In this document: positions 6,266 to 63,848 of the stretch, piece by piece | How positions within the stretch are numbered: position 1 is the first letter of the stretch | Layout of the letters: every line of letters begins with the position of its first letter | Notes under the pieces: model-generated | Told to the model about the DNA's origin: nothing | What the model saw: the letters and a program-made list of their open reading frames with translations, nothing else | The model's database searches: none | Program-made: the position numbers and the translations under genes | Source: an uncultured Lachnospiraceae bacterium | GTDB lineage: Bacteria; Bacillota; Clostridia; Lachnospirales; Lachnospiraceae | Length of the DNA: 64,000 nucleotides | Assembly (NCBI GenBank): GCA_910587955.1 | Contig: CAJUNN010000005.1 | Coordinates: 7,268-71,267, forward strand | Direction: 5' to 3'

Positions 6266-6335
6266 TCTATTTTCAGTTCTCCATACGCCCTCTCTGCATT
6301 CTGCACCGGGCTTTTGCTGTTTTTAGTTCCGCAGG
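6266..6335 (-). repeat. Degenerate single copy of the dispersed leader repeat family
   Basis: cagttctccatacgccctc ... ctgtttttagttccgcag resembles the units at 14442-14660. Its distal end overlaps the last codons of the kinase gene (…CTGCGGAACTAA). Confidence 0.4.
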
Positions 6336-7921
6336 CTCTCCACCGCCGCCCGCTCAATGGCAAGTCCTGCCGTGTAGCGCTCAATAAAGGCATCGAAGCC
6401 TTCCACATCCGCCGCATCCGGCTCTGCCTTCACGCCTGTCTCTCCTGCAAATACTTTCTCCCGGAGATAAGCACCCAGGCTTTCCCCTTCCTCCCGGTGC
6501 TTCCTATAAGCTGCCAGCAGGGCAATGCCCCAGGCTCCGCCTTCCCCGGCTGTCTCCATGACTACTACCGGAACGTTCATGGCCGCAGCCACGATTTTCT
6601 GTCCCACGCCCTTGGTTTTGAATAACCCGCCATGGCCCAGAACCTCATCCGCCTGCACACCTTCTTCCTTGAACAGGATATCCAGTCCTGTCTTCAAAGC
6701 GCCCAGGGCTGTGAAAAGATGAACCCTCATAAAGTTGGCAAGAGTAAAGCGGCTCTCCGGCCTGCGCACAAAGAGCGGACGTCCCTCCTCAAAGCCCGTA
6801 AGATGCTCGCCGGAAAAGTAATTGTAGGCCAGAAGGCCGCCACAGTCCGGATCTCCGTCCAAAGCCTTGTTATAGAGGGTTCCAAAGAGCTTATTCATAT
6901 CCACTTCCACGCCGAAGCTCTCTGCAAACTCCTTAAAGAGGCCCACCCAGGCATTCAAATCCGAGGTGCAGTTGTTGCAGTGGACCATACCCACCAGGCT
7001 GCCGTCCGGCGTGGTCACCATGTCAATCTCCGGGTGTACCTTTTTCAGCTCATGCTCCAGGACAATCATGGCAAAGACGGAGGTGCCCGCAGAAATATTT
7101 CCCGTGCGCTGCTTCACGCTGTTGGTGGCTGCCATACCCGTGCCGGCGTCTCCTTCCGGCGGACAGCAGGGAATCCCTGCCTGAAGCTCGCCCGATACAT
7201 CCAGAAGCTTTGCACCCTCCTCCGTCAGTGCCCCGGCATCTTCGCCGGCACAGAGAACCTCCGGAAGAATCCGGGAAAGCTTCCAGGGATATTCTTTATC
7301 TGCAATCAGAGTGTCAAACTGATCTATCATACGACCGTAGAATTTCTTCGTCCCGGTATCGATGGGAAACATGCCGGAGGCTTCCCCTATGCCCATCACT
7401 CTTTTCCCTGTAAGTTTCCAGTGAATATAACCGGAAAGGGTAGTCATATAGTCAATCCGGGGCAGATGCTCCTCCCCGTTCAATACCGCCTGATACAGAT
7501 GTGCAATGCTCCACCGCTGAGGAATCTGATAATTGAAAAGCTTTGTCAATTCCTCAGATGCCTGTCCGGTAATGGTATTTCTCCAGGTACGGAAAGGAAC
7601 CAGCTGGTTTCCCTCCTTGTCAAACACCAGATACCCGTGCATCATGGCACTGATTCCCAAGGCTCCCACTGTAGTAAGCTTTACGCCGTACCGCTCCTGC
7701 ACATCCGCTTTCAGGGCCTGATAGCTTCCCCGAAGGCCTTTCCAGACTTCCTCCAGAGCATAGGTCCAGATGCCGTTCTCAAGCTGGTTCTCCCAGTCGT
7801 AGCTTCCGCTGGCAATGGGCTTGTGGGCCTCGTCAATCAGCACCGCCTTGATCCGGGTGGAGCCCAGCTCAATGCCAAGGGCTGTCTTTCCCTCTAAAAT
7901 TGCCTGCTTTAAATCACTCAT
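6323..7921 (-). CDS. FGGY-family carbohydrate kinase, probable ribulokinase of the clostridial (AraK-like) type
   Basis: 532 aa with the FGGY N-terminal motif [14 protein letters not shown]. It lies immediately downstream of araA in the same orientation. Confidence 0.75.
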
Positions 7922-8152
7922 AGCGACCTCCTATTCCAGTTCCGCATCGCCCTCTCAAAGCCCCTTTTCTGGCAGCATTTCCGGCCGCACTGCGTCCGGA
8001 AACCCTGCCGGGCTTTGTTCGGGAACTTGCTGATTCCAGTTCCGCTCCATCCCTGCTGCGCCTTCTTACCGGCAGAGACTCCAGCCGCATTCTGCTTCCG
8101 GAATCTCTGCCGGGCGCTTCCGGGATTTCGCTGTTTTGATTCCAGTTCTCGT
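7922..8152 (-). repeat. Two tandem units of the dispersed structured repeat, filling the whole araA-kinase gap
   Basis: Each unit starts attccagttccgc on the plus strand. Unit 2 contains the perfect 10-bp arms ccggcagaga (8069-8078) and tctctgccgg (8104-8113). The minus-strand end reads GCGGAACTGGAATAGGAGGTCGCTATG. Confidence 0.8.
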
Positions 8153-9640
8153 TTATCGGAAGGCAACGGAGTTCCAGAGCAGTTCGTTCTTCAGGCTGCG
8201 GATGGTGGTGTCCTTGTCTATGTATACGGTCTCGATTCCCATGGCTGCCGCCCAGTCACCCAGCTGCTCTGCCGTCAGGTCGTAGGTAAAGGCCGTATGG
8301 TGGGCACCCCCTGCCAGAATCCAGCTCTCCGCTCCTGTAGCCAGGCTGGGCTGGGGTGTCCAGAATGCGGTGGCTACGGGAAGCTTTGGCATGGGCTTCT
8401 CCACCTTCTTGCAGTCTACCGTATTGATAATCAGGCGGAAACGGTTCCCCAGATCGATGAGAGATGCCGCAATGCCCGTGCCCGCCTTGGAAGTAAATAC
8501 CAGACGTGCCGGATCCTCCCGGTCTCCCATGGTAAGGGGATTTACCTTGATGCCGATGGGGCCTTCCGCAATGCTGGGGCAGACCTCCAGCATATGTGCC
8601 TGGAGGATTCCCTCCTTGCCCGGCACCAGATTGTAGGTATAATCTTCCATAAAAGAGGTTCCCTTGGCGTCTTTCATGCCTTCTGTCATAATTTTCATCA
8701 GGCGCACCATGGCCGCAGTCTTCCAGTCACCCTCTCCACCGAAGCCGTATCCTTTTTCCATCAGGCGCTGGATCGCCAGGCCCGGAAGCTGCTTTAAAGC
8801 CCCCAGATCACCGAAATGGGTCACGATGGCCTGATAGTTTTTCTCCTTCAGGAAGCGCTCAAAGCCAAGCTCAATCTGAGCCTGCACCGCCACGTGTTTC
8901 TTAAATTCCTCCGGATCCCTGCCTTCCAACAAGATCTCATATTTATCATAATATTCTTCTACCAAAGTGTCAACGTCGCCTTTTGCCGTCTCCTGGACAT
9001 ATTCTGCAATTTCATTGACCGGATAAGCATCGATTTCCCAGCCGAACTTGATCTGGGCCTCCACTTTATCACCCTCGGTAACGGCTACGTTCCGCATATT
9101 GTCTGCCACACGCACTACACGGATATGACTGCTTTCCATGATTCCTACCGCAGTCCGCATCCAGGAGGCAATTCTTCCGATGACCCCTTTGTCCGCCCAA
9201 TGACCCACAATCACCTTGCGCTCAATTCCCATACGGCTGACAATATGTCCGTACTCCCGGTCTCCGTGGGCTGACTGGTTCTCGTTCATAAAATCCATAT
9301 CAATGGTATCATAGGGAATTTCTTCATTAAACTGCGTATGCAGATGCAGCAGAGGCTTGCGGTACTCCTGCAGGCCCAGAATCCAGGATTTGGCCGGAGA
9401 AAACGTGTGCATCCAGGTAATCACGCCTGCACATTCCTCATCTCCATTGGCTTCGTTGAAGGTTCTGCGGATCAGCTCGTTGGTAATCAAGGTGGGCTTC
9501 CACACAATCTCATAGGGCAAAAGCCCGGACTCGTTCAGATGCTCCACGATTTTTTTTGAGTGCTCCGCCACATGGGCCAGGCATTCATCCCCGTATAAAT
9601 CCTGGGACCCGGTTGCAAACCAAAACTTGTAGTTTTTCAT
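8153..9640 (-). CDS. araA: L-arabinose isomerase
   Basis: 495 aa. MKNYKFWFATGSQDLYG... and ITWMHTFSPAK are characteristic of AraA, and the length matches. Confidence 0.95.
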   Translation of the reverse strand: MKNYKFWFATGSQDLYGDECLAHVAEHSKKIVEHLNESGLLPYEIVWKPTLITNELIRRTFNEANGDEECAGVITWMHTFSPAKSWILGLQEYRKPLLHLHTQFNEEIPYDTIDMDFMNENQSAHGDREYGHIVSRMGIERKVIVGHWADKGVIGRIASWMRTAVGIMESSHIRVVRVADNMRNVAVTEGDKVEAQIKFGWEIDAYPVNEIAEYVQETAKGDVDTLVEEYYDKYEILLEGRDPEEFKKHVAVQAQIELGFERFLKEKNYQAIVTHFGDLGALKQLPGLAIQRLMEKGYGFGGEGDWKTAAMVRLMKIMTEGMKDAKGTSFMEDYTYNLVPGKEGILQAHMLEVCPSIAEGPIGIKVNPLTMGDREDPARLVFTSKAGTGIAASLIDLGNRFRLIINTVDCKKVEKPMPKLPVATAFWTPQPSLATGAESWILAGGAHHTAFTYDLTAEQLGDWAAAMGIETVYIDKDTTIRSLKNELLWNSVAFR

Positions 9641-9693
9641 CTCTTTGACCTCCTATTCCGGTTCCGTAATTCTCCTACCAGAGAATTACTGTT
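9641..9693 (-). repeat. Short remnant of the leader repeat (hairpin plus shared SD tail) upstream of araA
   Basis: The minus strand reads GTAATTCTCtggtagGAGAATTAC GGAACCGGAATAGGAGGTCAAAGAGATG. The tail is the same as at the full-length repeat loci. Confidence 0.5.
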
Positions 9694-10818
9694 TTAAAGT
9701 TCCGTAGTGCCACCAATTTTCTTTACGGAATCCCGTTCCACCAGCCGGGCCTCAAACTCATACGTGCAGCCCGGAATGCCGGTGCGTATCATGGAAAGAA
9801 GCATCTCTGCCGCCTTTTCTCCCAAGGCCTCTTTCGGATGATGAACGGATGTCAGCCCCACCTCACCGAGAACTGCCAGATCCGTGTTATCTACGCTGAC
9901 CACAGAAACATCCCCCGGAACCGAAATCCCGTGCCGTTTCCAGATCTCCATCACCTCGAAAGCCGCGCTGTCATTGTAGCACAGCACCCCCGTACAGGAA
10001 CCCAGGCGCTCTGCAACTGCCTGTTCCAGCCTTCCGAATGCGAGCGTATCCTCTGTGTCAAACCACAAAATCCCATCCTCGCAGGGACGGATTCCCGCAT
10101 CCCGGACAGCCTCCATAAATCCCCGGTAACGCCGGATCCCCTGCCCGTCGTCCCGCTTAAAGAGCCCTCCCAGCTTCCGGTGTCCGTGCTCTATCAGATA
10201 TTGGGCAGCACACCGGCCTGCCATTTCATCCTGCAGGGCTACCATGGGGCAGGTTAGCTCGGGATAAGAACTATTCAGAAAAAGAATGGGAATCTTCCGG
10301 CTCTGCAGTTCCCGGTAAAGGGCCAGATTGGGATTGGGAAGAGCGCTCCGGGTAGTCTCAATGATAAGTCCGCCCAAATCCTGCTTCAGCAAATCCGCAA
10401 GCACAGCCTCCTCCCTCCAGATCCGGTTATTGGTAAAGGCAATCTGCACCTGAAAACCCTGATCTGAGAGCACTTTTTCAATTCCCCGGATAATCCGCGG
10501 AAAAATGTAATTGTCCACATATGTAGTGACTACGGCAATCCGGCGGCTCCGGGACTTTTCCTCTGCCTCGGCATCCGTCACAAAAGTCCCGCTTCCCTGA
10601 CGGCTGCGCACGAAACCCTGTCTCTCCAGCACACCCAAAGCTCTCCGCACCGTCTGGCGGCTCACAGAAAACTGCGCCTGCAGCTCCTGCTCCGAGGGAA
10701 GCTTCTTCCCCGGCTGATAGAATCCCTCTGCAATTTTCTGCTGCAGCCACTCTGCCAGCATTTGATATTTCGGCATCTGTCCTGTATCTCTTTCTTTTTT
10801 TCTTTCATCATAATACAT
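9694..10818 (-). CDS. araR: AraR-type transcriptional repressor (GntR-family wHTH fused to a LacI/PBP-type sugar-binding domain)
   Basis: N-terminal GntR HTH (LPSEQELQAQFSVSRQTVRRAL) and a C-terminal periplasmic-binding-like domain. It is adjacent to araA. Confidence 0.8.
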   Translation of the reverse strand: MYYDERKKERDTGQMPKYQMLAEWLQQKIAEGFYQPGKKLPSEQELQAQFSVSRQTVRRALGVLERQGFVRSRQGSGTFVTDAEAEEKSRSRRIAVVTTYVDNYIFPRIIRGIEKVLSDQGFQVQIAFTNNRIWREEAVLADLLKQDLGGLIIETTRSALPNPNLALYRELQSRKIPILFLNSSYPELTCPMVALQDEMAGRCAAQYLIEHGHRKLGGLFKRDDGQGIRRYRGFMEAVRDAGIRPCEDGILWFDTEDTLAFGRLEQAVAERLGSCTGVLCYNDSAAFEVMEIWKRHGISVPGDVSVVSVDNTDLAVLGEVGLTSVHHPKEALGEKAAEMLLSMIRTGIPGCTYEFEARLVERDSVKKIGGTTEL

Positions 10819-10867
10819 TCTAACTCTGGATACAAGAACAACCTCTTATCTCCCGCACATCTTTGTC

Positions 10868-11103: not shown

Positions 11104-11120
11104 GTTAATATATGATATAC

Positions 11121-11150: not shown

Positions 11151-11162
11151 TTTCTCTTTTTG

Positions 11163-12085: not shown

Positions 12086-14422
12086 TTATCTTGGGCCGTT
12101 TCCTTCTTTTTTTGTTCCTGCCGTCCCGGCCCCTTTCCCGGAACCGGACGCCGGCTTTCCGGCTGCTTTTGCAGATTTTGCCTTTGCGGCTTTCGCCTTC
12201 ACAGGTATCTTTTCCGGCGTACAGGAGAACACGGCAATTCCCATGGGGGGAACCGTAATCTCAATGGAATTCTCCTGCCCGTCGCACTCGGATTTCTTTG
12301 ACAGCTTTGCACGCTTGTTCCGCACATTGCTTCCGCCGTAGATCTCACTGTCGCTGTTAAAAATTTCCTTATAGCGTCCTTCAAAGGGTACGCCGATTTT
12401 ATGCTTCTCATAGATCAGAGGCGAGAAATTGCATACCACCAAAAGCGTCTCCTTCGCTTCCCCGGCCTGCCGGGTAAACACCAGCATATTCTCATTGGCC
12501 GAGATATTGTTGATCCAGGTAAAGCCCTCCGGCAGGCAGTCCTGCTCATACAGTGCCGGATGTGCCAGGCAGAAATGGTTCAGGTCCTTCACATAATCGT
12601 GCATATTGCTGTGATCCTGATACTCAAGAAGCTCCCAGTCCAGTCCTATATTCTCGTTCCACTCTTCAAAGGGCGCATAATCCTGCCCCATAAAGAGCAG
12701 TTTCTTTCCCGGATGGGTCATCATATAGCCGTAGACTGCCCGCAGATTGTTCAGCTGGGAATCCCGGTCTCCCGGCATCTTTCCCACCAGTGAGCTCTTC
12801 CCGTGCACCACTTCGTCGTGGGACAGGCTTAATATAAAGTTTTCACTGTAAGCATAAATCATGCTGAAGGTCAATTCTCCGTGATGATAAGCCCGGAACA
12901 CCGGATCGTACTGCATATAACCCAGAAAATCATTCATCCAGCCCATATTCCATTTGAAGTCAAAGCCCAGGCCGTTTTCCTCTACGCTTCCCGTGACCTT
13001 GGGCCATGCCGTCGATTCCTCTGCAATGAGAAGAGCTCCGTTCTTTTGTTTCCGGAAAATGGAATTTAAGTGCTTCAAAAATTCCATGGCTTCCAGATTT
13101 TCATTCCCGCCGTACATGTTGGCCACCCATTCTCCATCCTGTTTCCCGTAATCCAGATACAGCATGGATGCCACCGCATCCATACGGATGCCGTCTGCGT
13201 GGTAAACTTTTGTCCAGAACAGTGCGTTGGCAATGAGGAAATTTTTCACTTCCGGACGGCCGTAATTGTAGATCAGCGTTCCCCAATGGGGATGTGCTCC
13301 CTGCCTGGGATCGTAATGCTCATAGAGGCAGGTTCCGTCAAAAGCCGCCAGGCCAAAAGCATCCCTGGGGAAATGGGCCGGCACCCAGTCCAGAATGACG
13401 CCGATCCCCTGACCGTGCATATAATCCATAAAATACATAAAATCTTCCGGCGATCCGTACCGGGCTGTGGGCGCATAGTATCCCGTCACCTGATAACCCC
13501 AGGAAGCGTCTAAAGGATGCTCCATCACCGGCATCAGCTCCACATGGGTATATCCCATCTCTTTGACATAATCTGCAAGCTGGGGCGCCAGTTCCCGGTA
13601 GGTATAAAATTCCCGGCCGGAATCCTCCTCCGGCTTCTTCCAGGATCCCAGGTGCACTTCATAGATCAGCATGGGCGACTTCTGGTAGTCCGTCTTTTTC
13701 CGCTGTTCCAGCCATTCGCCGTCCTTCCACTCGTATCCCCTTAAGTCCGCCACTACGGAAGCCGTATTGGGCCTAAGCTCCGCCCGGTTGGCGTACGGGT
13801 CTGCCTTTAACATGGGAAGGCCGCTTCTGGTCTTAATTTCGTATTTATAAGTTTCCCCCGGCTCCAGCCCGGGAATAAACAGTTCAAAAATACCGGCCCC
13901 CTCAATCCTGCGCATGGGATGCCGCCGTCCGTCCCACAGGTTAAAGTCTCCTACCACGCTGACCCGGCTGGCGTCCGGAGCCCAGACTGCAAAGTAAACC
14001 CCCTGCGTACCCTTTATGGTCTGTGGATGGGCTCCCAGCTTCTCATAGATGGTATAATGAATTCCGGCTGCAAACTTGTCCAGATCCTGCACCGAAAACG
14101 CCTTGGGCTCAAAGCGGTAGGGATCCTCCAGATCCTGCACCGTTCCGTTATCATACTCTACCCGGTAAAAATAATCCGGAATGCTCTTTCCCGGCAGAAG
14201 CACCGCAAAAAATCCGGCTTCATCCGCCATCTCCATGGGATACTGTTTTCCGCTTTTACGTATTTCCGCCGTCATCTTCACTGCCGTAGGGCAGAAAGCC
14301 TGAACCAGAATCCCTCCGTCCACCTTGTGCGCCCCCAGTATTTCCTGGGGCTCGTCCTCCTCCGAATACACCAGCGCCTCAATCCGAGGCCAGTTCATCA
14401 AATCATACAGTTTTGCATCCAT
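12086..14422 (-). CDS. glgB: 1,4-alpha-glucan branching enzyme with a Lys/Ala-rich C-terminal tail
   Basis: GH13 regions DGIRMDAV, AEESTAWP and LSHDEVVHGK. The start is set at MDAKLYD (ATG at 14420-14422, preceded by GAAAGGA). The longer track ORF would run through the upstream repeat. Confidence 0.93.
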   Translation of the reverse strand: MDAKLYDLMNWPRIEALVYSEEDEPQEILGAHKVDGGILVQAFCPTAVKMTAEIRKSGKQYPMEMADEAGFFAVLLPGKSIPDYFYRVEYDNGTVQDLEDPYRFEPKAFSVQDLDKFAAGIHYTIYEKLGAHPQTIKGTQGVYFAVWAPDASRVSVVGDFNLWDGRRHPMRRIEGAGIFELFIPGLEPGETYKYEIKTRSGLPMLKADPYANRAELRPNTASVVADLRGYEWKDGEWLEQRKKTDYQKSPMLIYEVHLGSWKKPEEDSGREFYTYRELAPQLADYVKEMGYTHVELMPVMEHPLDASWGYQVTGYYAPTARYGSPEDFMYFMDYMHGQGIGVILDWVPAHFPRDAFGLAAFDGTCLYEHYDPRQGAHPHWGTLIYNYGRPEVKNFLIANALFWTKVYHADGIRMDAVASMLYLDYGKQDGEWVANMYGGNENLEAMEFLKHLNSIFRKQKNGALLIAEESTAWPKVTGSVEENGLGFDFKWNMGWMNDFLGYMQYDPVFRAYHHGELTFSMIYAYSENFILSLSHDEVVHGKSSLVGKMPGDRDSQLNNLRAVYGYMMTHPGKKLLFMGQDYAPFEEWNENIGLDWELLEYQDHSNMHDYVKDLNHFCLAHPALYEQDCLPEGFTWINNISANENMLVFTRQAGEAKETLLVVCNFSPLIYEKHKIGVPFEGRYKEIFNSDSEIYGGSNVRNKRAKLSKKSECDGQENSIEITVPPMGIAVFSCTPEKIPVKAKAAKAKSAKAAGKPASGSGKGAGTAGTKKEGNGPR

Positions 14423-14436
14423 CCCCTTGATCCTTT

Positions 14437-14660
14437 CATTACTAGTTCCGCATACGCCCTCCCTGCGCTCCTTCCCTAGAAAGACTTCCGGCCACACAAA
14501 CATGCGTCCGTAACTCTTTCTATGCGCTGTTCGGGCTTCTGCTGTTTCCAGTTCCGCATACGCCCTCCCTGCGCTCCTTCCCTAGAAAGACTTCCGGCCG
14601 CACAAACATGCGTCCGCAACTCTTTCTATGCGCTGTTCGGGCTCCTGCTGTTTTCAGTTC
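14437..14660 (-). repeat. Two near-identical tandem units (about 105 nt) of the dispersed structured repeat
   Basis: The sequence (c/t)agttccgcatacgccctccctgcgctccttccctagaaagacttccggcc(a/g)cacaaacatgcgtccg(t/c)aactctttctatgcgctgttcgggct(t/c)ctgctgttt is repeated twice. It fills the gap between the Cof hydrolase stop and glgB. Confidence 0.85.
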
Positions 14661-15460: not shown

Positions 15461-17406
15461 AGTGCCAAAAACTCCTCCTCTGTAAGAATGGGTATTCCCA
15501 GTTCCTTTGCTTTTTTATTTTTGGAAGAACCGGATGCGGCATCGTTGTTGATAAGATAATCCGTCTTTTTGGTTACGCTGCCGGTCACTTTTCCGCCTTT
15601 TGATTCAATCAGCTCCTGAAGCTCTCTGCGGTTTTCAAACCGGGTCAAGCTTCCGGTTATCACAAAGATCTTTCCCTGAAAGCTCCCCTCTCCCGGTTCT
15701 GCAGGTTCCTTCTGAAGCTCCAGTTTATCAAGAAGCCGGTAAAAGCGCTCCTTATTCTCCGCATCCTGAAAATAATTCACGAAGCTGGAGGCGATTACGC
15801 CGCCCACTCCGTCAATGGCTGCCAGATCTTCCTCTGTGGCCGCCAGCATATGTTCCACATCATTGTCAAATTCCCTGCAGATAAGCTTTGCCACCGCCAG
15901 GCCGATATTTAAAATCCCCAAACTGTAAATCACCTTTGCCAGCGTAGTTTTCCGGGCTTTTTTTATACTCGCCATAAGGTTTTCATAGGATTTTTCCCCA
16001 AAGCCTTCCATCCCTACAATTTCTTCCCGCCACCGCTCCAGGCGGAAAATATCTGCAAACTCGTGGATAAAACCCCGGGCAATAAATTTTTCCAGGGAAG
16101 CTTCCGAAAGCCCCTCCACGTTTAAAGCATCCCTGCTCACCAGCAGGGTAAAAGATTTGATTTTCTTGGCCTGGCATTCTCCGTTGGTACAGTAGAGGGA
16201 TTCCACATCATTGACTTTCCGGATCTCTGTAGCCCCGCCGCACACAGGACAGGTTTCCGGAATATCCTTAAGACCGCTCCGGGTCCGGTTTTCCGCAATC
16301 TGGGGGATAATCATATTAGCCTTGTAAACCTCTATGGTGTCTCCAATCCCCAGCTCCAGGGAACGCAGAATGCTGACGTTGTGGACGCTGGCCCGGCTGA
16401 CCGTGGTTCCCTCCAGCTCCACGGGTTCAAAAATAGCCACCGGGTTGATAAGCCCTGTCCGGGAAGGACTCCACGCAATCTCCAAAAGCTTGGTCTCCCG
16501 GATTTCATCCGCCCATTTAAAGGCCATGGAATCCCTGGGGAATTTGGAAGTCCTGCCAAGGGAGTTTCCATAGGAAATGTCATCGTAAAGAGCCACCAGA
16601 CCGTCTGACGGAAAATCGTTTTTTTCAATCCGTCCTGCAAAACGGCCCACCGCCTCTTCAAGATTTTCCTCTGTCACCACTTCATATTCTACGGTCTCAA
16701 AACCCTGGCGCTTCAGCCACAGAAACTCCTGTTCATGAGAATTCTGGAAATCAACTCCTTCCGCCCGCACCAGGGAAAAGGCAAAGAAATTGACATTTCT
16801 GCCGGCTGTAATCTCGTTGTTCAGCTGCCGCACGGATCCGCTGCAGAGATTTCTGGGATTTTTGTATTTCGCCTCTGTATCGGGAATTTCCTGGTTGATC
16901 CGCTCAAATTCCCGGTAGCCAATCACCGCCTCTCCCCGCAGAACCAGTTCTCCCGCAAAAGAAATCTTAAGGGGAAGGTTTTGGAACACCCGGGCGTTGT
17001 TTGTGATCACTTCTCCTACCTCACCGTTTCCCCTGGTGACAGCCTTGAAAAGCTGTCCATCCCGGTAGGTGAGCACAATGGTCAACCCGTCCAGCTTCCA
17101 GGACAGAAGCGTCCGGCGGGGGCCCACCCACTCTTTCAGCGTTTCCACATCTTTTGTCTTATCCAGGGAGAGCATGGGACGCTCGTGGCGCTCCTTGGGC
17201 AGTTCGCTCAAAACCTCATACCCCACCCGGAGGGTAGGACTTCCTGAAAGGATAACGCCCGTCTCCCGTTCCAGGGCCTCCAGCTCGTCATAAAGCCTGT
17301 CATATTCGAAATTACTCATGATTTCCCTGGCTTCCTGATAGTAAGTACGGGCGGCCTGATTCAAAAGCCCTGCCAGCTCTTTCATTCTCTCCTTTTTCTC
17401 TTCCAT
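15457..17406 (-). CDS. ligA: NAD-dependent DNA ligase
   Basis: 649 aa with adenylation motif KLDG (SWKLDGLT), Zn finger CPVCGG...C, HhH region and a C-terminal BRCT domain. Confidence 0.95.
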   Translation of the reverse strand: MEEKKERMKELAGLLNQAARTYYQEAREIMSNFEYDRLYDELEALERETGVILSGSPTLRVGYEVLSELPKERHERPMLSLDKTKDVETLKEWVGPRRTLLSWKLDGLTIVLTYRDGQLFKAVTRGNGEVGEVITNNARVFQNLPLKISFAGELVLRGEAVIGYREFERINQEIPDTEAKYKNPRNLCSGSVRQLNNEITAGRNVNFFAFSLVRAEGVDFQNSHEQEFLWLKRQGFETVEYEVVTEENLEEAVGRFAGRIEKNDFPSDGLVALYDDISYGNSLGRTSKFPRDSMAFKWADEIRETKLLEIAWSPSRTGLINPVAIFEPVELEGTTVSRASVHNVSILRSLELGIGDTIEVYKANMIIPQIAENRTRSGLKDIPETCPVCGGATEIRKVNDVESLYCTNGECQAKKIKSFTLLVSRDALNVEGLSEASLEKFIARGFIHEFADIFRLERWREEIVGMEGFGEKSYENLMASIKKARKTTLAKVIYSLGILNIGLAVAKLICREFDNDVEHMLAATEEDLAAIDGVGGVIASSFVNYFQDAENKERFYRLLDKLELQKEPAEPGEGSFQGKIFVITGSLTRFENRRELQELIESKGGKVTGSVTKKTDYLINNDAASGSSKNKKAKELGIPILTEEEFLAL

Positions 17407-17526
17407 AACAGCCTCCTATTACAGTTCCGCAGCTTCCCTACAAGCCCCCTTACCTGGAAGGATTTCCTGACCCTGCGTGTCCGGATATCCTTCCGGTGCT
17501 TTCCGGGTAGCTGCTGATTCTACTTT
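17407..17526 (-). repeat. Single unit of the dispersed structured repeat, forming the ligA leader
   Basis: attacagttccgcagcttccc ... ctggaaggat / atccttccgg ... gctgctgattc. The minus-strand end reads GCGGAACTGTAATAGGAGGCTGTTATG. Confidence 0.7.
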
Positions 17527-20160: not shown

Positions 20161-20278
20161 CTTTTCACCCCCTATTTCTTTTAGCATAGCACACCCCATT
20201 CATTTTCTCAATCTATTTTGTGCTTTTCCTACGCTGTCTATGCAATTTTTTTACACTTATGGAGAAATCTTTTTACAA

Positions 20279-20313
20279 CGAGAAACGATGCAGCCATGGC
20301 TACATCGTTTCTA
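20279..20313 (-). terminator. Hairpin downstream of gdhA; probable terminator with a weak U-tract
   Basis: gaaacgatgcagc catg gctacatcgtttc forms a 13-bp stem with one G-U/mismatch. The trailing sequence on the minus strand is TCGTTGTAAAAAG. Confidence 0.4.
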
Positions 20314-20351
20314 CAAAACAACTCCTGTTTTCTTTTCGGAATAACTACTTC

Positions 20352-25880: not shown

Positions 25881-25953
25881 GCATCTGTAGCTCAGTGGAT
25901 AGAGCACTGGCCTCCGACGCCAGGTGCCGCTAGTTCGAATCTAGTCAGATGCA
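25881..25953 (+). tRNA. tRNA-Arg (anticodon CCG); CCA not encoded
   Basis: Folded by hand as a cloverleaf: acceptor GCATCTG/CAGATGC, D arm GCTC/GAGC, anticodon stem CTGGC/GCCAG with loop CTCCGAC, and T arm GCTAG-TTCGAAT-CTAGT. Confidence 0.9.
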
Positions 25954-31997: not shown

Positions 31998-32126
31998 AAC
32001 TACCTCCTATGACGCTGATGATCTCTGGTTTTCAGTATAGTATATTCCCGGCCTGCCTGTCAATGCACCCGGAACCTTTTTTTGCTCCCCGCATAGAATA
32101 AAGAAAGATCTGCCAAAGGAACACTT

Positions 32127-33967: not shown

Positions 33968-35116
33968 TTATTTTCCAAACATACCGGCCGCCCGCTTCAT
34001 ATTTTCCATAACCGGAACTTGAAAAGGACAGCGCTTCTCGCAGGAACCGCAGCCTACACATTCTCCGGCTTTGTGTTCCAGGACTGCATAATGCTCCCGC
34101 ACGGTCTCCGGGATTTCCCCCTGGGCCGCTGCCAGATTGAGAAACTTCGTCACCAACGCCACATCGATCCCCTTGGGACAGGGGGCACAGTGGCCGCAGT
34201 ACATACAATGTCCCTTCCAGCTGATCCTAGGAAAGCCGGCTAAAGCCGCCGCATAATCCTTCTGGCTCTCCTCCGCCTCCTCATAAGCGGCACTCGCCTC
34301 CAGCTCGGAAATCGTCCGGGCCCCGGACATGACGGAGGCCACAGCCGGCCGGGTCAGGGCATAGTGGATGCACTGATACAAAGTCAGGGCTTTGCCCGCA
34401 GGAGACAGCTCCCCGTTCAAAAGATCTCCTCCTCCGAAAGCCTTCATCACGGTTATCCCCACTCCCAGACGCTGGCAGGTCTCATAGAGGGCCTGACGCT
34501 GGGGATCCATATTCACCAGAGGCTTTTCGTAATTTTTTCCGTCCCAGAGGGCCTCCACATCCTCATTGGCTGGAAGCAGATCATAGCAGGGATTGACGCT
34601 GAACATGAGGATATCCACCAGGCCGCTGTTTACCGCAGCCAGAGCCGCCTCCGGGTTATGGCTGGACATGCCGATACAGCCAATCTTTCCCTCTGCCTTT
34701 AGCTCCAGGGCATAACCCATCACATCCCCCTTTTGGATCTCTTCCCAGTCCTTTAAGGAATCCACATAGTGAATCATGCCAATCTCCACCCGATCTGTCT
34801 CCAGGCGCCGCAGCTGATCCGCAAAGCCCTCCTTTACCTCTGAAATCTCCCTGGTCCGCTTATATTGGCCATCCTTCCAGACGGAGCAGAGATGAGCCTG
34901 AAGGATAAATTTTTCCCTGCGTCCTTTAAGGGCCGCACCCAGATTGGAGCGTACCTCCGGGTCCGGGGTGTACAAATCCAGGCAGTTGACGCCCCACTCC
35001 TCCATTTTATCCACAAAAGCTCTTGTCTCCTCTGCGGATTTTCCCACAAGGCCCTCGCATCCCATTCCGATTTCACTCATAGTAAGGCCGGTACGGCCTG
35101 CTCTGCGATACTTCAT
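33968..35116 (-). CDS. Aldo/keto reductase fused to a C-terminal 4Fe-4S ferredoxin-type domain
   Basis: AKR N-terminus MKYRRAGRTGLTMSEIGMGCEG and two Cys clusters, CMYCGHCAPCP and CVGCGSCEKRCP. Confidence 0.85.
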   Translation of the reverse strand: MKYRRAGRTGLTMSEIGMGCEGLVGKSAEETRAFVDKMEEWGVNCLDLYTPDPEVRSNLGAALKGRREKFILQAHLCSVWKDGQYKRTREISEVKEGFADQLRRLETDRVEIGMIHYVDSLKDWEEIQKGDVMGYALELKAEGKIGCIGMSSHNPEAALAAVNSGLVDILMFSVNPCYDLLPANEDVEALWDGKNYEKPLVNMDPQRQALYETCQRLGVGITVMKAFGGGDLLNGELSPAGKALTLYQCIHYALTRPAVASVMSGARTISELEASAAYEEAEESQKDYAAALAGFPRISWKGHCMYCGHCAPCPKGIDVALVTKFLNLAAAQGEIPETVREHYAVLEHKAGECVGCGSCEKRCPFQVPVMENMKRAAGMFGK

Positions 35117-35262
35117 ATATCTTGTCCCCCTATTCCAGTTCCCCTATTCTAGTTCCGCATACGCCCTCCAGGCACCCCTCCCTTAGAAAGAATTTCAGCC
35201 GTAAAAATACACGGCCGCAATTCTTTCTGGGCGCCTTCCGGGCTTCTGCTGTTTTGATTATA
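35117..35262 (-). repeat. One unit of the dispersed structured repeat with a duplicated SD-tail motif
   Basis: The minus-strand end reads GCGGAACTAGAATAGGGGAACTGGAATAGGGGGACAAGATATATG. The body tagaaagaatttcagccg...cggccgcaattctttct forms the central hairpin. Confidence 0.75.
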
Positions 35263-58936: not shown

Positions 58937-58959
58937 ATATCCACTCCCTGCCTTTTTTT

Positions 58960-59196
58960 CACATAAGTAAAGATCCGCACGCAAAGCGGATCTTTCCCTC
59001 TCTTTATCAGAACCGCTTTCCTCGGAAGCCTGTCTAACCCGCACAGAAAGCAGGTTTCCTGACTTACAGTTCTTTGCTTGGCCGCCCCTTCTCACGCTTC
59101 TGGCGCAATGGTTTCTTCGGACCTCACTCCCTGAATACAGTGACCGGATCGTTTGGGGCTCTCACCCAATTCCCTTTTCTGTGCCTTTTGGCACAC
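58960..59196 (-). promoter_or_regulatory. Cobalt/cobalamin-sensing riboswitch (aptamer about 59041-59184) with a terminator-like expression platform
   Basis: The minus strand reads GCACAGAAAAGGGAATTGGGTGAGAGCCCC...CCGGTCACTGTA...GTAAGTCAGGAAACCTGCTTTCTGTGC. P1 is CACAGAAAG/CTTTCTGTG, and the B12-box-like AGTCAGGAAACCTGC is present. A downstream hairpin AAAGATCCGC-tttgcgt-GCGGATCTTT (about 58962-58995) follows. Confidence 0.85.
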
Positions 59197-59237
59197 ACTT
59201 TCTGCTCTTCATAAATTTCTTTTTGATCTTTTTTAAC

Positions 59238-59266
59238 AGTTTAGCATATGGAAAGCTGTTCGTCAA
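59238..59266 (-). promoter_or_regulatory. Promoter of the cobalamin operon
   Basis: On the minus strand: TTGACG (59261-59266), a 17-nt spacer, then TGcTAAACT, an extended -10 with the hexamer at 59238-59243. Confidence 0.55.
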
Positions 59267-59341
59267 ACGTGAGATAAGAAAAAATATCTCCAGCCGGACA
59301 CCCCGGTTGGAGATACGAAAAATTCTTTTTCTCTTTCAATC

Positions 59342-59755: not shown

Positions 59756-59809
59756 TTTAATCCTCCTCAATACTTCTTCCAAGAAAAGTGAAAAATCACC
59801 AACGACTTT

Positions 59810-59838
59810 ATTATAATCCCTTTCCCCTTTTTATGCAA
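59810..59838 (-). promoter_or_regulatory. Promoter of the K/A-rich protein gene
   Basis: On the minus strand: TTGCAT (59833-59838), a 17-nt spacer, then TATAAT (59810-59815). Confidence 0.5.
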
Positions 59839-60007
59839 CGAAGCCGGAATATTTCTCCAAATCCATCAATTTTCCCCAGTATTTCCACTGTTTTCCGGAA
59901 AAGCGCCTATATATGAAAAAAACTCCGTCCGGCCCGCCGGGTAAAAATCACGAAAGAAGGCTCTTTTAAGAAGGCTGTCGTAAGCGAAAGCACAACAGAG
60001 CAGATAC

Positions 60008-61243
60008 CTATGTTAACATATGAATAAAAAGACCGCTGCGCAGTTTGGGCTCAAACCAGGTGGATTTCGGCGGCATCAGCCGTCCGGCGTCTGCAACGGC
60101 AAACAATTCTCCGATAGAGGTGGGATACATGGCAAAGGCTGCCTCCATATCCGTATGTACCCGGCGCTCCAGCTCTTCAAGGCCCCGGATGCCTCCCACG
60201 AAATCCACGCGCCGGTCGGTTCTGGGATCCCCGATGCCCAGAACCGGATGAAGCAGTTCTCTTTGAAGAACGGACACATCCAGTCCCTCCACCGGATCGC
60301 CGTCTGCATATTCCGGTTTTATGGTCAGAAGATACCAGCCCGTTTTCATACACAGGGAAATTTCTCCCTTTTTCCCGGGATGCCGGGGACCGGACAAAGG
60401 TTCCGTAATAAAGACCTTTCTCACCTGCTCCAGAAATTCTTCCTGGCTTAAGCCGTTCAGATCCCGCACCACCCGGTTGTAATCCATAATCATCAATTCA
60501 TCGTCCGGGAAAAGCACCGAGAGAAAGTAATTAAATTCTTCCTCCCCCGTATATGCCGGATGAGCGGCTCTGCGCATGGTTCCCACCCGGACTGCGGAAG
60601 CTGCCCGGTGATGTCCATCCGCAATGTACAGGGAATCCATGCCGGCAAAAGCATTCCGGATCTCTTCCACAGTCCCAGCCTCCTCTATCCGCCAGCCCCG
60701 GTGGCCGATTCCGTCCTCCGAAACAAAGGAAAACATCGGCGTCTTTTCTTTCTCCCGGGACAGGATCTTGCGGAGCACCGGATGGCTCCGGTAAGCCAAA
60801 AAGATAGGGCCCGTCTGAGCATCGCAGGCATCCACATGCCGGACCCGGTCTTCCTCCTTCTCCCGCCTGGTATTCTCATGCTTTTTAATACGGTTTTCCA
60901 GGTAATCATCCACGGAAGCACAGGCCACGATTCCCGTCTGGCTGCGGCCGTCCATGGTCAGTTCATACAGATAATAAGCATTTCCCTCATCACGGACAAA
61001 GGACCCATCCGTCTTCATTTCCTCCAAAAGTTCCCGTGCTTTCCCGTAAACCGGATCCCCGTACATATCTGCATCGGCGGGGAACTGGGTCTCCGGCCGG
61101 TCAATCCGCAGAAAGGAACGGGGATGTCCCGCCACCGCCTCTCTGGCCTCCGCCCGGCTGTACACATCGTAAGGCAGCGCCGCAATTTCCGGCTCTCTTC
61201 CCGGAGCCGGCCGTAGGGCTGCGAAAGGTCTAACGTCAGCCAT
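60008..61243 (-). CDS. DUF1015 domain protein
   Basis: 411 aa. The N-terminus MADVRPFAALRPAPG... and overall layout match my recollection of DUF1015. The start codon shares 1 nt with the serA stop (TGATG). Confidence 0.75.
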   Translation of the reverse strand: MADVRPFAALRPAPGREPEIAALPYDVYSRAEAREAVAGHPRSFLRIDRPETQFPADADMYGDPVYGKARELLEEMKTDGSFVRDEGNAYYLYELTMDGRSQTGIVACASVDDYLENRIKKHENTRREKEEDRVRHVDACDAQTGPIFLAYRSHPVLRKILSREKEKTPMFSFVSEDGIGHRGWRIEEAGTVEEIRNAFAGMDSLYIADGHHRAASAVRVGTMRRAAHPAYTGEEEFNYFLSVLFPDDELMIMDYNRVVRDLNGLSQEEFLEQVRKVFITEPLSGPRHPGKKGEISLCMKTGWYLLTIKPEYADGDPVEGLDVSVLQRELLHPVLGIGDPRTDRRVDFVGGIRGLEELERRVHTDMEAAFAMYPTSIGELFAVADAGRLMPPKSTWFEPKLRSGLFIHMLT

Positions 61244-62406
61244 CAGCAGATCACCCGCACTTTCAAAACCCCCGGAAGCGCCTCCAGCTTGCGGATCAGC
61301 TCCGGACTTACCCGGTTTTCCAGATCAAACATGGAATAGGCATAATCCCCCCGGCTCTTGTTGGTCATATTTCCGATGTTGTGGTTTTCCTCACCCAGAA
61401 TCACCGTAAATTTATTCAGCATATTTTTCACATTCTTATGACAGATGGCAATCCGGGCAGGATAGCTGGGCACTCCCATATCGCAGTCCGGATAGTTCAC
61501 GGAATTTTTAATGTTTCCGTGTTCCAGATAGCAGCGCACCTCTTTGACTGCCATGCGGGCGCAGTTTTCCTCCGCCTCTTCCGTAGAGGCTCCCAGATGG
61601 GGAATTACAATGGTTCCCTTGGCCCCTGCCGTCACCGGATTGGGGAAATCCGTCACATAGCGCTTCACCTTTCCGGTACGCAGAGCCATTACCATAGCAT
61701 CCTCATCCACCAGCAGATCCCTGGCAAAATTCAGGACCACCACGCCTTCTTTCATGCGGTTGATGGCATCCTGATTCAGCATTTTCTTTGTGCTCTCTAA
61801 AAGCGGCACATGGATGGTAATATAATCGCACTCCCGGTAAATATCATCCACGTTGGTAATATGCCGGATATTTCTGGAAAGATTCCAGGCTGCCTCCACG
61901 GAAATGTAGGGGTCATATCCCAGCACCTCCATGCCCAGGTGGGTAGCCGTGTTGGCCACCTGGACGCCGATGGCTCCAAGGCCGATGATACCCAGCTTCT
62001 TTCCCTGGATCTCATGGCCCGCAAACTGCTTCTTCTGCTTCTCGGAAAGCTTTGCAATCTCCTCGTTCTGCCGCTCGGACTGGACCCAGTTCACGCCTCC
62101 TATAATATCCCTGGATGCCATCAGAAGTCCGGCGATTACCAGCTCCTTCACGCCGTTTGCATTGGCTCCCGGAGTATTGAACACTACAATCCCCTGCTCC
62201 GCACACTTTCCCAGGGGAATGTTGTTGACTCCGGCTCCCGCCCGGGCAATGGTATGTAAATTCTTCGGCAGCTCCATATCGTGCATGGCTGCACTGCGGA
62301 CCAGGAGCGCATCGGCCTCCTCCAGCTCTTCCACCTGGACATACTCCCTGGTAAAGTGATCCAGGCCGAACTTTGCGATTGGATTCAGGCATTTGTATTT
62401 ATACAT
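61243..62406 (-). CDS. serA: D-3-phosphoglycerate dehydrogenase
   Basis: 2-hydroxyacid dehydrogenase fold (GIIGLGAIG NAD motif) and a C-terminal ACT-like domain. The start is set at MYKYKCLNP, overlapping the serC stop by 8 nt. Confidence 0.88.
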   Translation of the reverse strand: MYKYKCLNPIAKFGLDHFTREYVQVEELEEADALLVRSAAMHDMELPKNLHTIARAGAGVNNIPLGKCAEQGIVVFNTPGANANGVKELVIAGLLMASRDIIGGVNWVQSERQNEEIAKLSEKQKKQFAGHEIQGKKLGIIGLGAIGVQVANTATHLGMEVLGYDPYISVEAAWNLSRNIRHITNVDDIYRECDYITIHVPLLESTKKMLNQDAINRMKEGVVVLNFARDLLVDEDAMVMALRTGKVKRYVTDFPNPVTAGAKGTIVIPHLGASTEEAEENCARMAVKEVRCYLEHGNIKNSVNYPDCDMGVPSYPARIAICHKNVKNMLNKFTVILGEENHNIGNMTNKSRGDYAYSMFDLENRVSPELIRKLEALPGVLKVRVIC

Positions 62407-63490
62407 GGGCTTTCTTTTCCTCCTCAAATTTTCTCATAAACTCCACAAGGGCCGAAACGCCCTCCCTCGGCATGGCGTTGTAAATGCTTGCCCGCATGCC
62501 GCCCACACTCCGGTGGCCTTTCAGATTGACAAGACCGGCTTCCGCAGCCGCCTTCACAAATTCCGCATCTGTCTGGGCATCTCCCGTTACAAAGGGCACG
62601 TTCATCCAGGAACGGTCTTCCTTTCTTACCGTTCCCCGGAACAGCCTGCTCTCATCCAGGAAATTATAGAGGAGAGACGCCTTTTCCTCGTTGCGGGCTT
62701 TCATGGCCTCCAGGCCTCCCATTCTCTGAATCCACTTAAATACCTTGCCGCACATATAGATGCAGTAGGCGTTGGGCGTATTGTAAAGGGAATTGGCATC
62801 TGCATGGATTTTGTACTTCATATAGGTAGGAGTTCCCGGCAGGGTATCCTCTGTGATCAGATCTTCCCGGATAATTGCAATCACCATGCCGGCCGGGCCG
62901 ATATTCTTCTGCACGCCTCCATAAATAAGGCCGTATTTCTCCACATCCATGGGTTCTGAGAGAAAGCAGGAAGATACATCGGACACAAGAAGCTTTCCTT
63001 TGGTATTGGGAAGGGTGTGAAACTTGGTCCCGTAGATGGTATTGTTCTCGCAGATGTATACATAGTCTGCATCGGGGCTGATATCCAGATCCGAACAGTC
63101 CGGGATATAGGAAAAGGTTTCGTCCTCAGAGGAAGCAATTTTATTGGCCTTCCCGTAAATCTGCGCCTCTTTCCAGGCTTTTTTCGCCCACTGTCCCGTG
63201 ACAATGTAATCTGCTGTCCGGTTCTTCATCAGATTCATGGGGATCATGGCAAACTGCAAATGGGCTCCCCCCTGCAGAAACAGCACTTTATAATGGGCCG
63301 GAATGTGCAGCAGATCCCGGATATCCTGCTCCGCTTCGTTTAAAATATCCTCAAACACTTTGGAGCGGTGGGACATCTCCATCACGGACATCCCCGTTCC
63401 CCGGTAATCCAGCATCTCCTTTGCAGCTTCGTTTAATACCTCCTCCGGCAGTACCGCCGGGCCTGCCGAAAAATTATATACGCGCTTCAT
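62399..63490 (-). CDS. serC: Phosphoserine aminotransferase
   Basis: MKRVYNFSAGPAVLPEEVL is the SerC hallmark. 363 aa. Confidence 0.93.
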   Translation of the reverse strand: MKRVYNFSAGPAVLPEEVLNEAAKEMLDYRGTGMSVMEMSHRSKVFEDILNEAEQDIRDLLHIPAHYKVLFLQGGAHLQFAMIPMNLMKNRTADYIVTGQWAKKAWKEAQIYGKANKIASSEDETFSYIPDCSDLDISPDADYVYICENNTIYGTKFHTLPNTKGKLLVSDVSSCFLSEPMDVEKYGLIYGGVQKNIGPAGMVIAIIREDLITEDTLPGTPTYMKYKIHADANSLYNTPNAYCIYMCGKVFKWIQRMGGLEAMKARNEEKASLLYNFLDESRLFRGTVRKEDRSWMNVPFVTGDAQTDAEFVKAAAEAGLVNLKGHRSVGGMRASIYNAMPREGVSALVEFMRKFEEEKKAHV

Positions 63491-63848
63491 ACTATTGGGT
63501 CCTCCTATTCCAGTTCCGCAGAAATCCCTTCAGCACCCTTCCTGTAGAAAGACTTCCGGCCGCGCTGCGTCCGTAATTCTTTCTGGGCGCTGCTTGGATT
63601 TCTGCTGTTTTTGATTCCAGTTCCGCAGAAATCCCTTCCAACACCCTTCCTATAGAAGAATTTACAGCCGCCAGGCGCCTGCAAATCCTTCTGGGCGTTG
63701 TACGGGTTTCTGCTGTTTTTTTGATTCTAATTCCCAGTTCCGCAGAAATCCCTTCAGCACCCTTCCTGTAGAAAGACTTCCGGCCGCGCTGCGTCCGTAA
63801 TTCTTTCCGGGCGCTGCTTGGATTTCTGCTGTTTTTGATTCCAGTTAA
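63491..63848 (-). repeat. Three tandem units (about 107-123 nt) of the dispersed structured repeat, forming the serC leader
   Basis: Units lie at about 63507-63613, 63614-63723 and 63724-63846, each starting att(c)cagttccgcagaaatccc and ending ttctgctgttttt(tt)g. Units 1 and 3 differ by about 1 nt over their shared length, and unit 2 is diverged. Confidence 0.9.

Follow-up and report, generated by a model that had tools for sequence, protein, structure and literature searches.

A 64,000-nt stretch of DNA from an uncultured Lachnospiraceae bacterium (contig CAJUNN010000005.1, positions 7,268 to 71,267 of the forward strand; hereafter the window) carries a family of structured repeats whose units, each about 105 nt long, stand in gene sense directly before the Shine-Dalgarno (SD) sequences of unrelated genes. 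The anatomy of the units, their structure on the sense strand, their position and orientation locked to the downstream gene, their variation in copy number, their concerted evolution and their loss at individual loci are all shown by the sequences. Because the units lie in gene sense before the ribosome-binding site (RBS), have no Rfam match and vary in number between strains, the repeat probably acts on the mRNA. We favor, tentatively and with somewhat less than even confidence, the idea that it is a cis-acting leader or intercistronic RNA cassette (a stabilizer, processing site or insulator) that would spread by duplication and gene conversion.

A covariance model (CM) was built from nine window units and run over the whole window with filters off. 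The nine full units that it recovered, and two further units that are mini or degenerate, are spread over seven loci and lie without exception on the minus strand, the strand of the genes; the model gave no further convincing copy in the window. The full units scored 68 to 114 bits, and repeat finders gave tandem periods of 106 nt at 14444-14660 and of 108-116 nt at 63507-63846. An earlier note on this DNA, made from the letters alone, had placed the repeats at seven loci, in a common orientation and beside six genes (kinase, araA, glgB, ligA, AKR-FeS and serC). The repeat finders and the CM found the same coordinates, the strand agreed for all nine full and both weak units, and Pfam confirmed the six genes. 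Read 5' to 3', a full unit consists of (GGAAU)C/A-AAAACAGCAG, a long imperfect hairpin and CUGCGGAACUGGAAU, and is followed either by another unit or by AGGAGG and, 5-10 nt further on, ATG. The features are as follows (MFE, minimum free energy; z, score relative to shuffles; AKR/Fe-S, aldo-keto reductase with an Fe-S domain).

63731 to 63842, minus strand: serC leader array, unit 1 of 3 (GGAAUCAAAAACAGCAG, hairpin, CUGCGGAACUGG); CM match 63731-63835, 110 bits; MFE -47.8 kcal/mol, z -7.0
63614 to 63719, minus strand: serC leader array, unit 2 of 3; CM 107 bits; MFE -52.4 kcal/mol, z -8.2
63507 to 63611, minus strand: serC leader array, unit 3 of 3, SD-proximal; CM 114 bits; 99% identity to unit 1
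63488 to 63506, minus strand: serC AGGAGG (63506-63501), 10-nt spacer and ATG (63490-63488), right after the box GCGGAACUGGAAU; read from the sequence
63857 to 63885, minus strand: promoter-like TTGACA-17-TAAAAT just 5' of the serC array; an 11/12 consensus match only
35146 to 35255, minus strand: AKR/Fe-S leader, single unit; CM 105 bits; MFE -57.1 kcal/mol, z -6.8
35114 to 35145, minus strand: AKR/Fe-S duplicated short box (GAACUGGAAU), AGGGGG and ATG; read from the sequence, a 14-nt tandem repeat
17418 to 17520, minus strand: ligA leader, single unit between an rluB-like gene (stop 17527) and ligA; CM 78 bits
14545 to 14660, minus strand: glgB leader array, unit 1 of 2; CM match 14545-14654, 108 bits; 96% tandem identity
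14439 to 14548, minus strand: glgB leader array, unit 2 of 2, SD-proximal; CM match 14439-14544, 89 bits
8033 to 8146, minus strand: FGGY-kinase leader array, unit 1 of 2; CM match 8037-8137, 68 bits; MFE -52.7 kcal/mol
7919 to 8036, minus strand: FGGY-kinase leader array, unit 2 of 2, with AGGAGG (7932-7927) and ATG (7921); CM match 7933-8036, 105 bits
9638 to 9700, minus strand: araA mini-unit (AAAACAG, 10-bp hairpin, ACGGAACCGGAAU, AGGAGG and the araA ATG); CM match 9655-9695, 24 bits
6270 to 6335, minus strand: degenerate mini-unit past the FGGY-kinase stop (CUGCGGAACUAA); CM match 6270-6323, 27 bits; fold no better than shuffles

By Pfam, the genes downstream of the units encode an FGGY kinase, AraA, GlgB, LigA, an aldo-keto reductase with an Fe-S domain and SerC (domain Aminotran_5), which have no common functional theme, and those upstream encode an AraR-like regulator, a HAD hydrolase and an RluB-like pseudouridine synthase. 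The second unit of the serC array is of a divergent type, with about 62% identity to units 1 and 3. The AKR/Fe-S unit begins 1 nt past the TATAAT of a promoter-like site read by eye (TTGACT-19 nt-TATAAT, 35287-35257, minus strand), which the promoter scan did not call because its spacer is 19 nt. At ligA, the unit is followed by AGGAGG at 17417-17412 and ATG at 17406. The first glgB unit starts at the TAG stop of the HAD-hydrolase gene, and the SD-proximal one is followed by GAAAGGA and then by ATG at 14422. The first kinase unit begins a few nt past the araA stop, and the stop codon of the AraR-like gene falls within GGAACUUUAA, which flanks the araA mini-unit. Three details of the earlier note needed correction. 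The tail GCGGAAC..AATAGGRGG had been ascribed to every locus, but the glgB leader ends in GCGGAACUAGUAAUGAAAGGA and the araA mini-unit has ACGGAACC; the spacing between AGGAGG and ATG is 5-10 nt and not 6-10 nt; and adjacency to a start codon holds at the six genes but not for the degenerate copy at 6266-6335, which is followed by the ATG of a response-regulator gene only about 65 nt further on.

Two side observations belong here. Public glgB gene calls at L125-L128 begin at an ATG inside the unit (window 14423-14503) and give a protein of 805 aa, and the conserved start MDAKLYDLMNWPRI gives 778 aa; because the repeat unit contains an ATG, GlgB receives a false N-terminal extension of 27 aa. 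A 25-bit candidate at 20250-20331 (minus strand), in which AAAACAGGAG precedes a hairpin without the box, lies between two minus-strand genes and was rejected as probably an unrelated hairpin; the alternative is a very diverged relative of the repeat family.

The position of the repeat relative to genes was examined in a wider sample. A scan of a genome collection with the pattern CAGCAG-N70-100-TGCGGAACTRGAAT returned at least 114 blocks of 8 kb, from which the arrays and units outside the window species were sampled. In 96 such arrays the consensus runs from CUGCGGAACUGGAAU straight into AGGAG, which amounts to a fixed offset to the SD. The earlier note had proposed a count of positional bias at start codons, and the count bears the bias out: 65 of 83 arrays are followed within about 25 nt by an SD, then after 4-13 nt by a start codon that opens an open reading frame (ORF) of at least 100 aa, whereas no array qualifies in mirror orientation (0 of 83) and only 4.7% of random positions do (p ~1e-69). 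The start codon mostly lies 11-15 nt past the unit end. This strict test was substituted for a permissive one (any start codon within 60 nt that opens an ORF of 60 aa or more), which 88 of 90 arrays pass but which is uninformative because 49% of random positions pass it as well. Array orientation tracks the downstream gene even where neighboring genes point the opposite way, as at L036, where nrdR with its unit is the lone plus-strand gene among minus-strand genes, and at the divergent junction of L073. Since arrays on both strands were found in none of the sampled loci, the question of replication strand versus gene strand was settled from loci of mixed gene orientation; 17 of 96 arrays lie in loci where less than 60% of the gene bases share the strand of the array. 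Because of the sense-strand lock and the fixed offset to the SD, the repeat effectively supplies the RBS context of unrelated genes, much as had been claimed.

On the upstream side, a co-oriented ORF ends at most 150 nt away in 76 of 90 arrays, often within 0-8 nt, and window units likewise stand at or beside stop codons (araA to kinase, araR to araA, HAD to glgB and rluB to ligA). As the units abut upstream stops, which leaves no room for a terminator or promoter, and as the promoter scan called no promoter inside them, we infer from this arrangement that they are co-transcribed with the flanking genes. An intrinsic (Rho-independent) terminator can be rejected, since the sense strand lacks a U-tract: the 9 nt 3' of the hairpin hold a mean of 1.0 U, and the tail reads GGAACUGGAAU. 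Nor is the box an independent, widespread leader motif, since nearly all good boxes belong to units, including units missed by the hidden Markov model (HMM).

Full units fold alone at -43 to -57 kcal/mol, with z between -3.5 and -8.2, and the hairpin that had been ascribed to every unit is present in each full unit, although the degenerate copy folds no better than shuffles. The whole hairpin comprises about 40 bp. Its outer part is a stem with an invariant GCA/UGC base, followed by a 3x3 internal loop and a second stem; further in come a bulge of about 7 nt that is rich in purines and confined to the 3' strand (ACAGGAA, AGGGAAGG, GGUAAGG and similar) and a long upper stem that ends in a small loop. 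The upper stem is conserved in sequence (AUUUaCGGAC...CCGGAAAU) and includes an A-G mismatch. An A-rich single-stranded linker (GGAAU-C/A-AAAACA) precedes the hairpin, and an unpaired GGA-rich box of 13 nt (GCGGAACUGGAAU) follows it and leads to the SD and start codon. Across genomes the sequence itself is invariant at AAACAGCAG, at AUUUaCGGAC...CCGGAAAU and in the 3' box, and the remaining stems covary freely, in agreement with the earlier description of a conserved apex on variable but complementary stems. Three candidate features of the units were rejected: a K-turn in the asymmetric loop, which is excluded because a 0x7 loop cannot form one; extended pairing of the box or P3 to the 3' end of 16S rRNA, since these positions covary freely; and a small ORF within units, which is inconsistent between units.

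Covariation supports this fold. Compensatory changes occur at 14 of 31 pairs among the nine window units aligned with MAFFT/RNAalifold. In a wide alignment of 124 units from many genomes, which was fitted to the CM and is biased toward structure but with which slid controls and the independent MAFFT/RNAalifold alignment agree, 91% of cells are paired, compared with 70% in column shuffles and 30-44% when partners are slid by 1-3 columns. Double changes occur there at 30 of the 31 pairs, in 769 cells as against 176 in shuffles. The excess of G-U and U-G pairs (156) over A-C and C-A pairs (37) implies that it is the sense strand whose helix is maintained, whether in RNA or in top-strand single-stranded DNA (ssDNA); together, the covariation and the strand-asymmetric G-U pairs bear out the claim of a structured family. 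Related copies within a genome differ at 14.6% of paired and 26% of unpaired columns, with 115 double changes that keep a pair and 83 single changes that break one, and in the youngest pairs of copies 12 single changes keep pairing as wobble and 11 break it. These patterns suggest that pairing is under selection in individual copies, although a similar pattern could come from descent out of several structured master lineages.

The number of units differs between strains. Conspecific strains have 3, 3, 2 and 1 units in the serC leader, 1, 2 and about 3 in the leuB-ilvD spacer, and 1, 2 and at least 3 in the glgB leader. Arrays at the sampled loci contain one unit in 69 cases, two in 28, three in 8 and four in 1, but metagenome assemblies end or gap at arrays (L005:1-77, L133:1-37, and N-runs at L001:3025-3124 and, in the glgB leader, at L129), and because the repeats break short-read assemblies in this way, copy numbers from metagenome-assembled genomes (MAGs) are lower bounds. 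In the variable part, median identity is 0.88 within an array, 0.63 between separate loci of one genome and 0.48 for units of different genomes. The unit consensus is particular to each genome, the differences being compensatory stem changes, and near-identical units occur at unrelated loci of one genome (L053/L056, 98%, with a common tract that spans box to box; L027, 90%; L014/L037, 89%). Since units resemble other units of their own genome more than units at orthologous loci, the comparison indicates concerted evolution via gene conversion, continuing copying, or both. The duplication that had been proposed earlier is likewise borne out by the strain-variable unit number and the near-identical units at separate loci.

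Units also decay. In 51 of 88 arrays an extra box stands 5' of the first unit and is the 3' end of an internally deleted mini-unit, and hairpin-less box repeats stand directly before some SDs (for example, CAAAGCGGAACUGGAAU twice). When filled and empty sites are compared, the cassette replaces the entire interval from the upstream gene end to the SD and is not a simple insertion; it can even supply the upstream stop codon (GCG GAA CUG GAA UAA at L056, CUG CGG AAC UAA at window 6335). In the sister species MGBC154005 (LigA 92% identical), the SD-proximal glgB unit is orthologous and conserved, and the upstream glgB unit is of a different type. At L135:3882-4000, in a relative with 79% identical LigA, the rluB-ligA spacer holds an unrelated GC-rich hairpin and AAGAAUAAGAAUAGCGGG instead of a unit; this may be the decayed form of an element or another element altogether. 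Ahead of some units stand a different conserved tail (..GCCGUCGCGCAGCGACUU; L109:2700-2748 and 4160-4279, and L043 upstream of 976) and a longer mosaic sequence, which suggests further subfamilies or mosaic arrangements like those of bacterial interspersed mosaic elements (BIMEs). A locus with six units also contains a match to a group II intron domain (RF02001, 48 bits; L113:7425-7534, minus strand).

Among the matches listed, all blocks that match the model are from Lachnospiraceae, Acetatifactor or unclassified gut-bacterium assemblies, and the model finds the family only in Acetatifactor-like Lachnospiraceae there. Carriers include Acetatifactor muris DSM 23669 (L047), the isolates 1XD8-76 and 1XD21-13, and one MAG labelled Oscillospiraceae. 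Five viral-contig loci and the non-Lachnospiraceae pattern matches gave no model match apart from two of 39 loci (L103 and L069, gut MAGs), and the pattern matches in other phyla and viral contigs fit the estimated few dozen chance matches. An identical SerC is encoded on mouse-gut metagenome contigs and in MAG GCA_948658015.1. Rfam 15 at gathering thresholds found only a cobalamin riboswitch and a tRNA in the window, and E-value scans of the serC array and five unit-rich loci found only noise over the units (MIR5565 at 22-24 bits, compared with a gathering score of 80). The riboswitch (99 bits; 59032-59217, minus strand) lies 5' of a minus-strand cobalamin/tetrapyrrole biosynthesis operon (TP_methylase, GlutR, HemC/D-like and CbiA), and the single tRNA gene (69 bits) is at 25881-25953 on the plus strand, most window genes being on the minus strand. 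Full-text literature searches, whose coverage stops short of subscription journals, gave no description of such repeats in Lachnospiraceae, Clostridia or Acetatifactor and only one analogue, the TAACTGA repeats discussed below; an earlier description may exist in subscription journals.

How might such a cassette work? We infer each functional step that follows from the anatomy described above. The hairpin ends 13 nt before the SD, which would place it near the 5' boundary of the stretch covered by an initiating ribosome, where it might block 5'-to-3' decay of the RNase J type, shield the downstream cistron and insulate each RBS from upstream sequence. In Firmicutes, a hairpin near the 5' end stops decay of the RNase J type in the 5'-to-3' direction, and RNase Y cleaves A/U-rich single strands that adjoin structures, as at the cggR-gapA site. 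The A-rich linker or the asymmetric bulge could be an endonuclease site for RNase Y or RNase III, and by analogy the series of linker, lower stem, asymmetric bulge and upper stem is compatible with an RNase III/RNase Y site or a 5' stabilizer. If tandem units were cut apart, the upstream cistron would keep a protective hairpin at its 3' end and the downstream cistron one at its 5' end, and unit number might tune expression. At the DNA level, units would multiply within arrays through unequal recombination or slippage and from locus to locus through gene conversion, and would decay through deletions across the palindrome.

Several observations weigh against a function of this kind. Units before orthologous genes across species (xylB-like, nrdR and others) are 0.39-0.69 identical, no better than the background median of 0.48, and such non-conservation would fit turnover or mobility as well as function. 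In MGBC154005 the ligA hairpin has been lost through a 66-nt deletion bounded by two CGGAA repeats, which points to loss of units by microhomology deletion; in more distant relatives rluB/ligA lack a unit and only remnants are present at glgB. The nrdR leader of the window (31998-32070, minus strand) has its own TTGACA-17-TATACT promoter-like site and AGGAGG and no unit, and a unit is present there in two other species (L033 and L036). Units are thus dispensable at individual loci, being lost in sister species with no obvious harm. Partition-function folding gave the SD a predicted unpaired probability of 0.63 in the real unit and 0.59 with shuffled upstream sequence (p = 0.15), so that neither freeing nor sequestration of the SD by the element is supported. 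Finally, selfish REPINs likewise have covarying hairpins, occur in tandem clusters and form populations specific to a genome (PMC3116915).

The last point leads to a serious rival, which we consider possible but rather unlikely: the units may be selfish DNA of the kind of REPINs or miniature inverted-repeat transposable elements (MITEs), with an ssDNA hairpin recognized by a putative transposase (RAYT/IS200-type HUH or other). Adjacency to the SD would then reflect target preference (insertion beside an existing box, or anywhere between stop codon and SD) or tolerance, any effects on expression would be incidental, and a looped-out hairpin that keeps the stop-to-SD distance short would make insertions nearly neutral. 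The near-identical units at unrelated loci of one genome (98% for L053/L056), the higher identity within (0.63) than between (0.48) genomes with a consensus for each genome, the gain and loss of units between related species with loss tolerated, and the many internally deleted mini-units and hairpin-less boxes all speak for this idea. REPINs share a like hairpin length class, compensatory changes and tandem clusters (PMC3116915), and the sense-strand asymmetry is compatible with it because ssDNA hairpins also tolerate G-T wobble. However, the termini are asymmetric (AAAACAGCAG versus CUGCGGAACUGGAAU), with neither terminal inverted repeats beyond the stem nor a variable target-site duplication, none of the 83 arrays fits its gene in mirror orientation, and the SD offset is exact. 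Orientation follows the gene and not the local majority strand, which a bias of the IS200/IS605 type would not give, and no units were seen at neutral sites such as convergent gene ends, which are usual for selfish repeats. Moreover, no recurrent transposase-like ORF family appeared among 1311 ORFs in about 0.7 Mb of unit-bearing loci, a weak test given blocks of 8 kb. A co-opted mobile element may reconcile both readings. The earlier note had set aside CRISPR, REP-like and insertion sequence (IS) elements together; the units are indeed neither CRISPR nor IS elements, nor sense-strand terminators, but REP-like elements were dismissed too quickly.

A bolder version of the RNA-cassette idea, which is speculative and which we think unlikely, is that a clade of gut Lachnospiraceae has standardized a large part of its translation-start regions with a self-propagating RNA cassette made up of a linker, a nuclease-resistant or processable hairpin, the GGA box and the SD, that a genome-specific trans-acting factor co-evolves with it, and that unit number sets the stability or translation of each cistron.

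It would also be tempting to regard the units as a docking platform for a hypothetical trans-acting RNA-binding factor (CsrA-like, another global regulator or a nuclease adaptor) that controls a large regulon, with the genome-specific unit variants reflecting co-evolution with that factor. Box and SD together read GGAACU-GGAAUA-GGAGG, so that GGA recurs three times at intervals of 6 nt, and often a fourth time in the bulge; the sequence itself is kept at AAACAGCAG, AUUUaCGGAC..CCGGAAAU and the box while other stems covary; and box-only tandem repeats (CAAAGCGGAACUGGAAU, twice) stand directly 5' of SDs. CsrA, however, prefers GGA motifs within hairpin loops, and those of the units lie outside them; in addition, the downstream genes share no functional theme and sister species lose units without replacement. 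Even with a conceptual precedent in the TAACTGA repeats of Beggiatoaceae (PMC4679880), we regard this explanation as quite improbable.

Very improbable, finally, is a one-way terminator of antisense or convergent transcripts at gene starts through which sense transcription passes: although the opposite strand reads a strong hairpin and then UGUUUU(U) from the conserved A-run 5' of the stem (mean 5.3 U in the 9-nt antisense tail, at least 5 U in 76 of 114 units), and some plus-strand stretches inside units pass a terminator scan (for example, 9666-9689, 63582-63598 and 63806-63822), the U-tract is short, interrupted and often UGUUUCCAG, sub-hairpins and not whole units satisfy the scan, and the conserved box, fixed SD offset and tandem arrays are left unexplained.

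If the repeat acts as RNA, it would be one of the rare repeat families in bacteria that are placed with single-nucleotide precision before the RBS and a natural modular device that sets cistron-specific mRNA stability and translation inside operons, and its copy number would explain expression differences from strain to strain. A selfish repeat would instead represent a replicator of the REPIN kind in Firmicutes, and its specificity for gene sense and the SD would have no precedent. Were translation starts indeed standardized by the cassette, it would be a mobile 'RBS module' that has been domesticated, and genome organization would gain a new post-transcriptional layer. Either way, the arrays break metagenome assemblies and mislead gene callers, as at glgB, and they are a candidate strain-typing marker for mouse-gut Lachnospiraceae.

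As a kind, structured intergenic repeats are known (REP/REPIN, Correia, ERIC, BOX); the combination found here, sense-locked, nucleotide-exact before the SD, tandem, copy-variable, concertedly evolving and frequent (seven loci in 64 kb), is without match in Rfam or the searchable literature. Two classes can be ruled out. CRISPR arrays have identical repeats of about 24-48 nt separated by unique spacers of similar length, whereas the present units of about 105-116 nt are joined head to tail without spacers and are down to 62% identical within an array. As for integron attC sites, neither end of the unit fits the RYYYAAC...GTTRRRY core on either strand, and the units are dispersed before housekeeping genes.

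At the DNA level, the closest comparison is with the REPINs of Pseudomonas and Enterobacteria, hairpins of REP doublets that are associated with RAYT transposases and show compensatory changes, tandem clusters and genome-specific populations (PMC3116915). The present units are similar in being many-copy, hairpin-forming intergenic repeats of about 70-110 nt with compensatory changes across the hairpin, in forming tandem clusters of near-identical units, and in making up genome-specific, vertically inherited populations. REPINs, however, consist of two inverted short REPs with symmetric conserved ends and typically a GTAG-like 5' motif, whereas the present family is asymmetric: its conserved ends, AAAACAGCAG and CUGCGGAACUGGAAU, are not reverse complements beyond the GCAG/CUGC stem base, and in the window the CM scores 38 bits on the reverse strand compared with 114 on the forward strand. 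It is further distinguished by being sense-locked to the next gene, by abutting the SD and by having a Firmicute as host; no RAYT turned up in the 8-kb blocks around units, in which a proper RAYT search is not possible.

The nemis repeats of Neisseria and the ERIC/YPAL repeats of Yersinia are comparable to Correia elements. All of these are repeats of about 100-150 nt that form a long RNA hairpin and are co-transcribed with their neighbors, as the present units probably are; RNase III can bind or cleave their hairpins and so alter mRNA stability, and they can give adjacent genes expression signals. As true MITEs they have terminal inverted repeats and a TA target duplication and are inserted in both orientations, and the signal that they supply is a promoter and not an RBS. 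In contrast to the Correia elements of Neisseria (PMC2649163) and the other MITEs, the present family has no target duplication, a single orientation and a fixed SD offset. Its units are flanked by unrelated sequence or by another copy of the 13-nt box from an internally deleted unit, and not by the duplications that mark a MITE.

The intercistronic RNase III sites of phages T7 and SP82, the 5' stabilizer hairpins of Bacillus and the RNase Y site of cggR-gapA separate or stabilize cistrons. The T7/SP82 sites share with our units a hairpin built of lower stem, asymmetric internal loop and upper stem, and a setting in one orientation between cistrons or at mRNA 5' ends, shortly ahead of the next RBS. 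These sites differ in being few per genome and not a dispersed, copy-number-variable family, and cleavage of the present units is only predicted. BOX elements of Streptococcus pneumoniae have an A-B-C architecture with variable internal modules and affect the expression of their neighbors. They resemble our family as modular intergenic repeats with variable tandem modules and a predicted stable RNA structure, but lack SD adjacency, a strict gene-sense orientation and sequence similarity to the present units.

The TAACTGA heptamer direct repeats of Beggiatoaceae, Cyanobacteria and Bacteroidetes lie a few nt 5' of start codons and have been proposed as post-transcriptional sites for S1, Csp or CsrA (PMC4679880). 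The heptamers come without a hairpin and from other phyla, and their similarity to AACUG is probably coincidental. As short direct repeats of variable number before unrelated genes, they are nevertheless like the present family, whose box and box-only repeats (GAACUGGAAU) behave in a similar manner.

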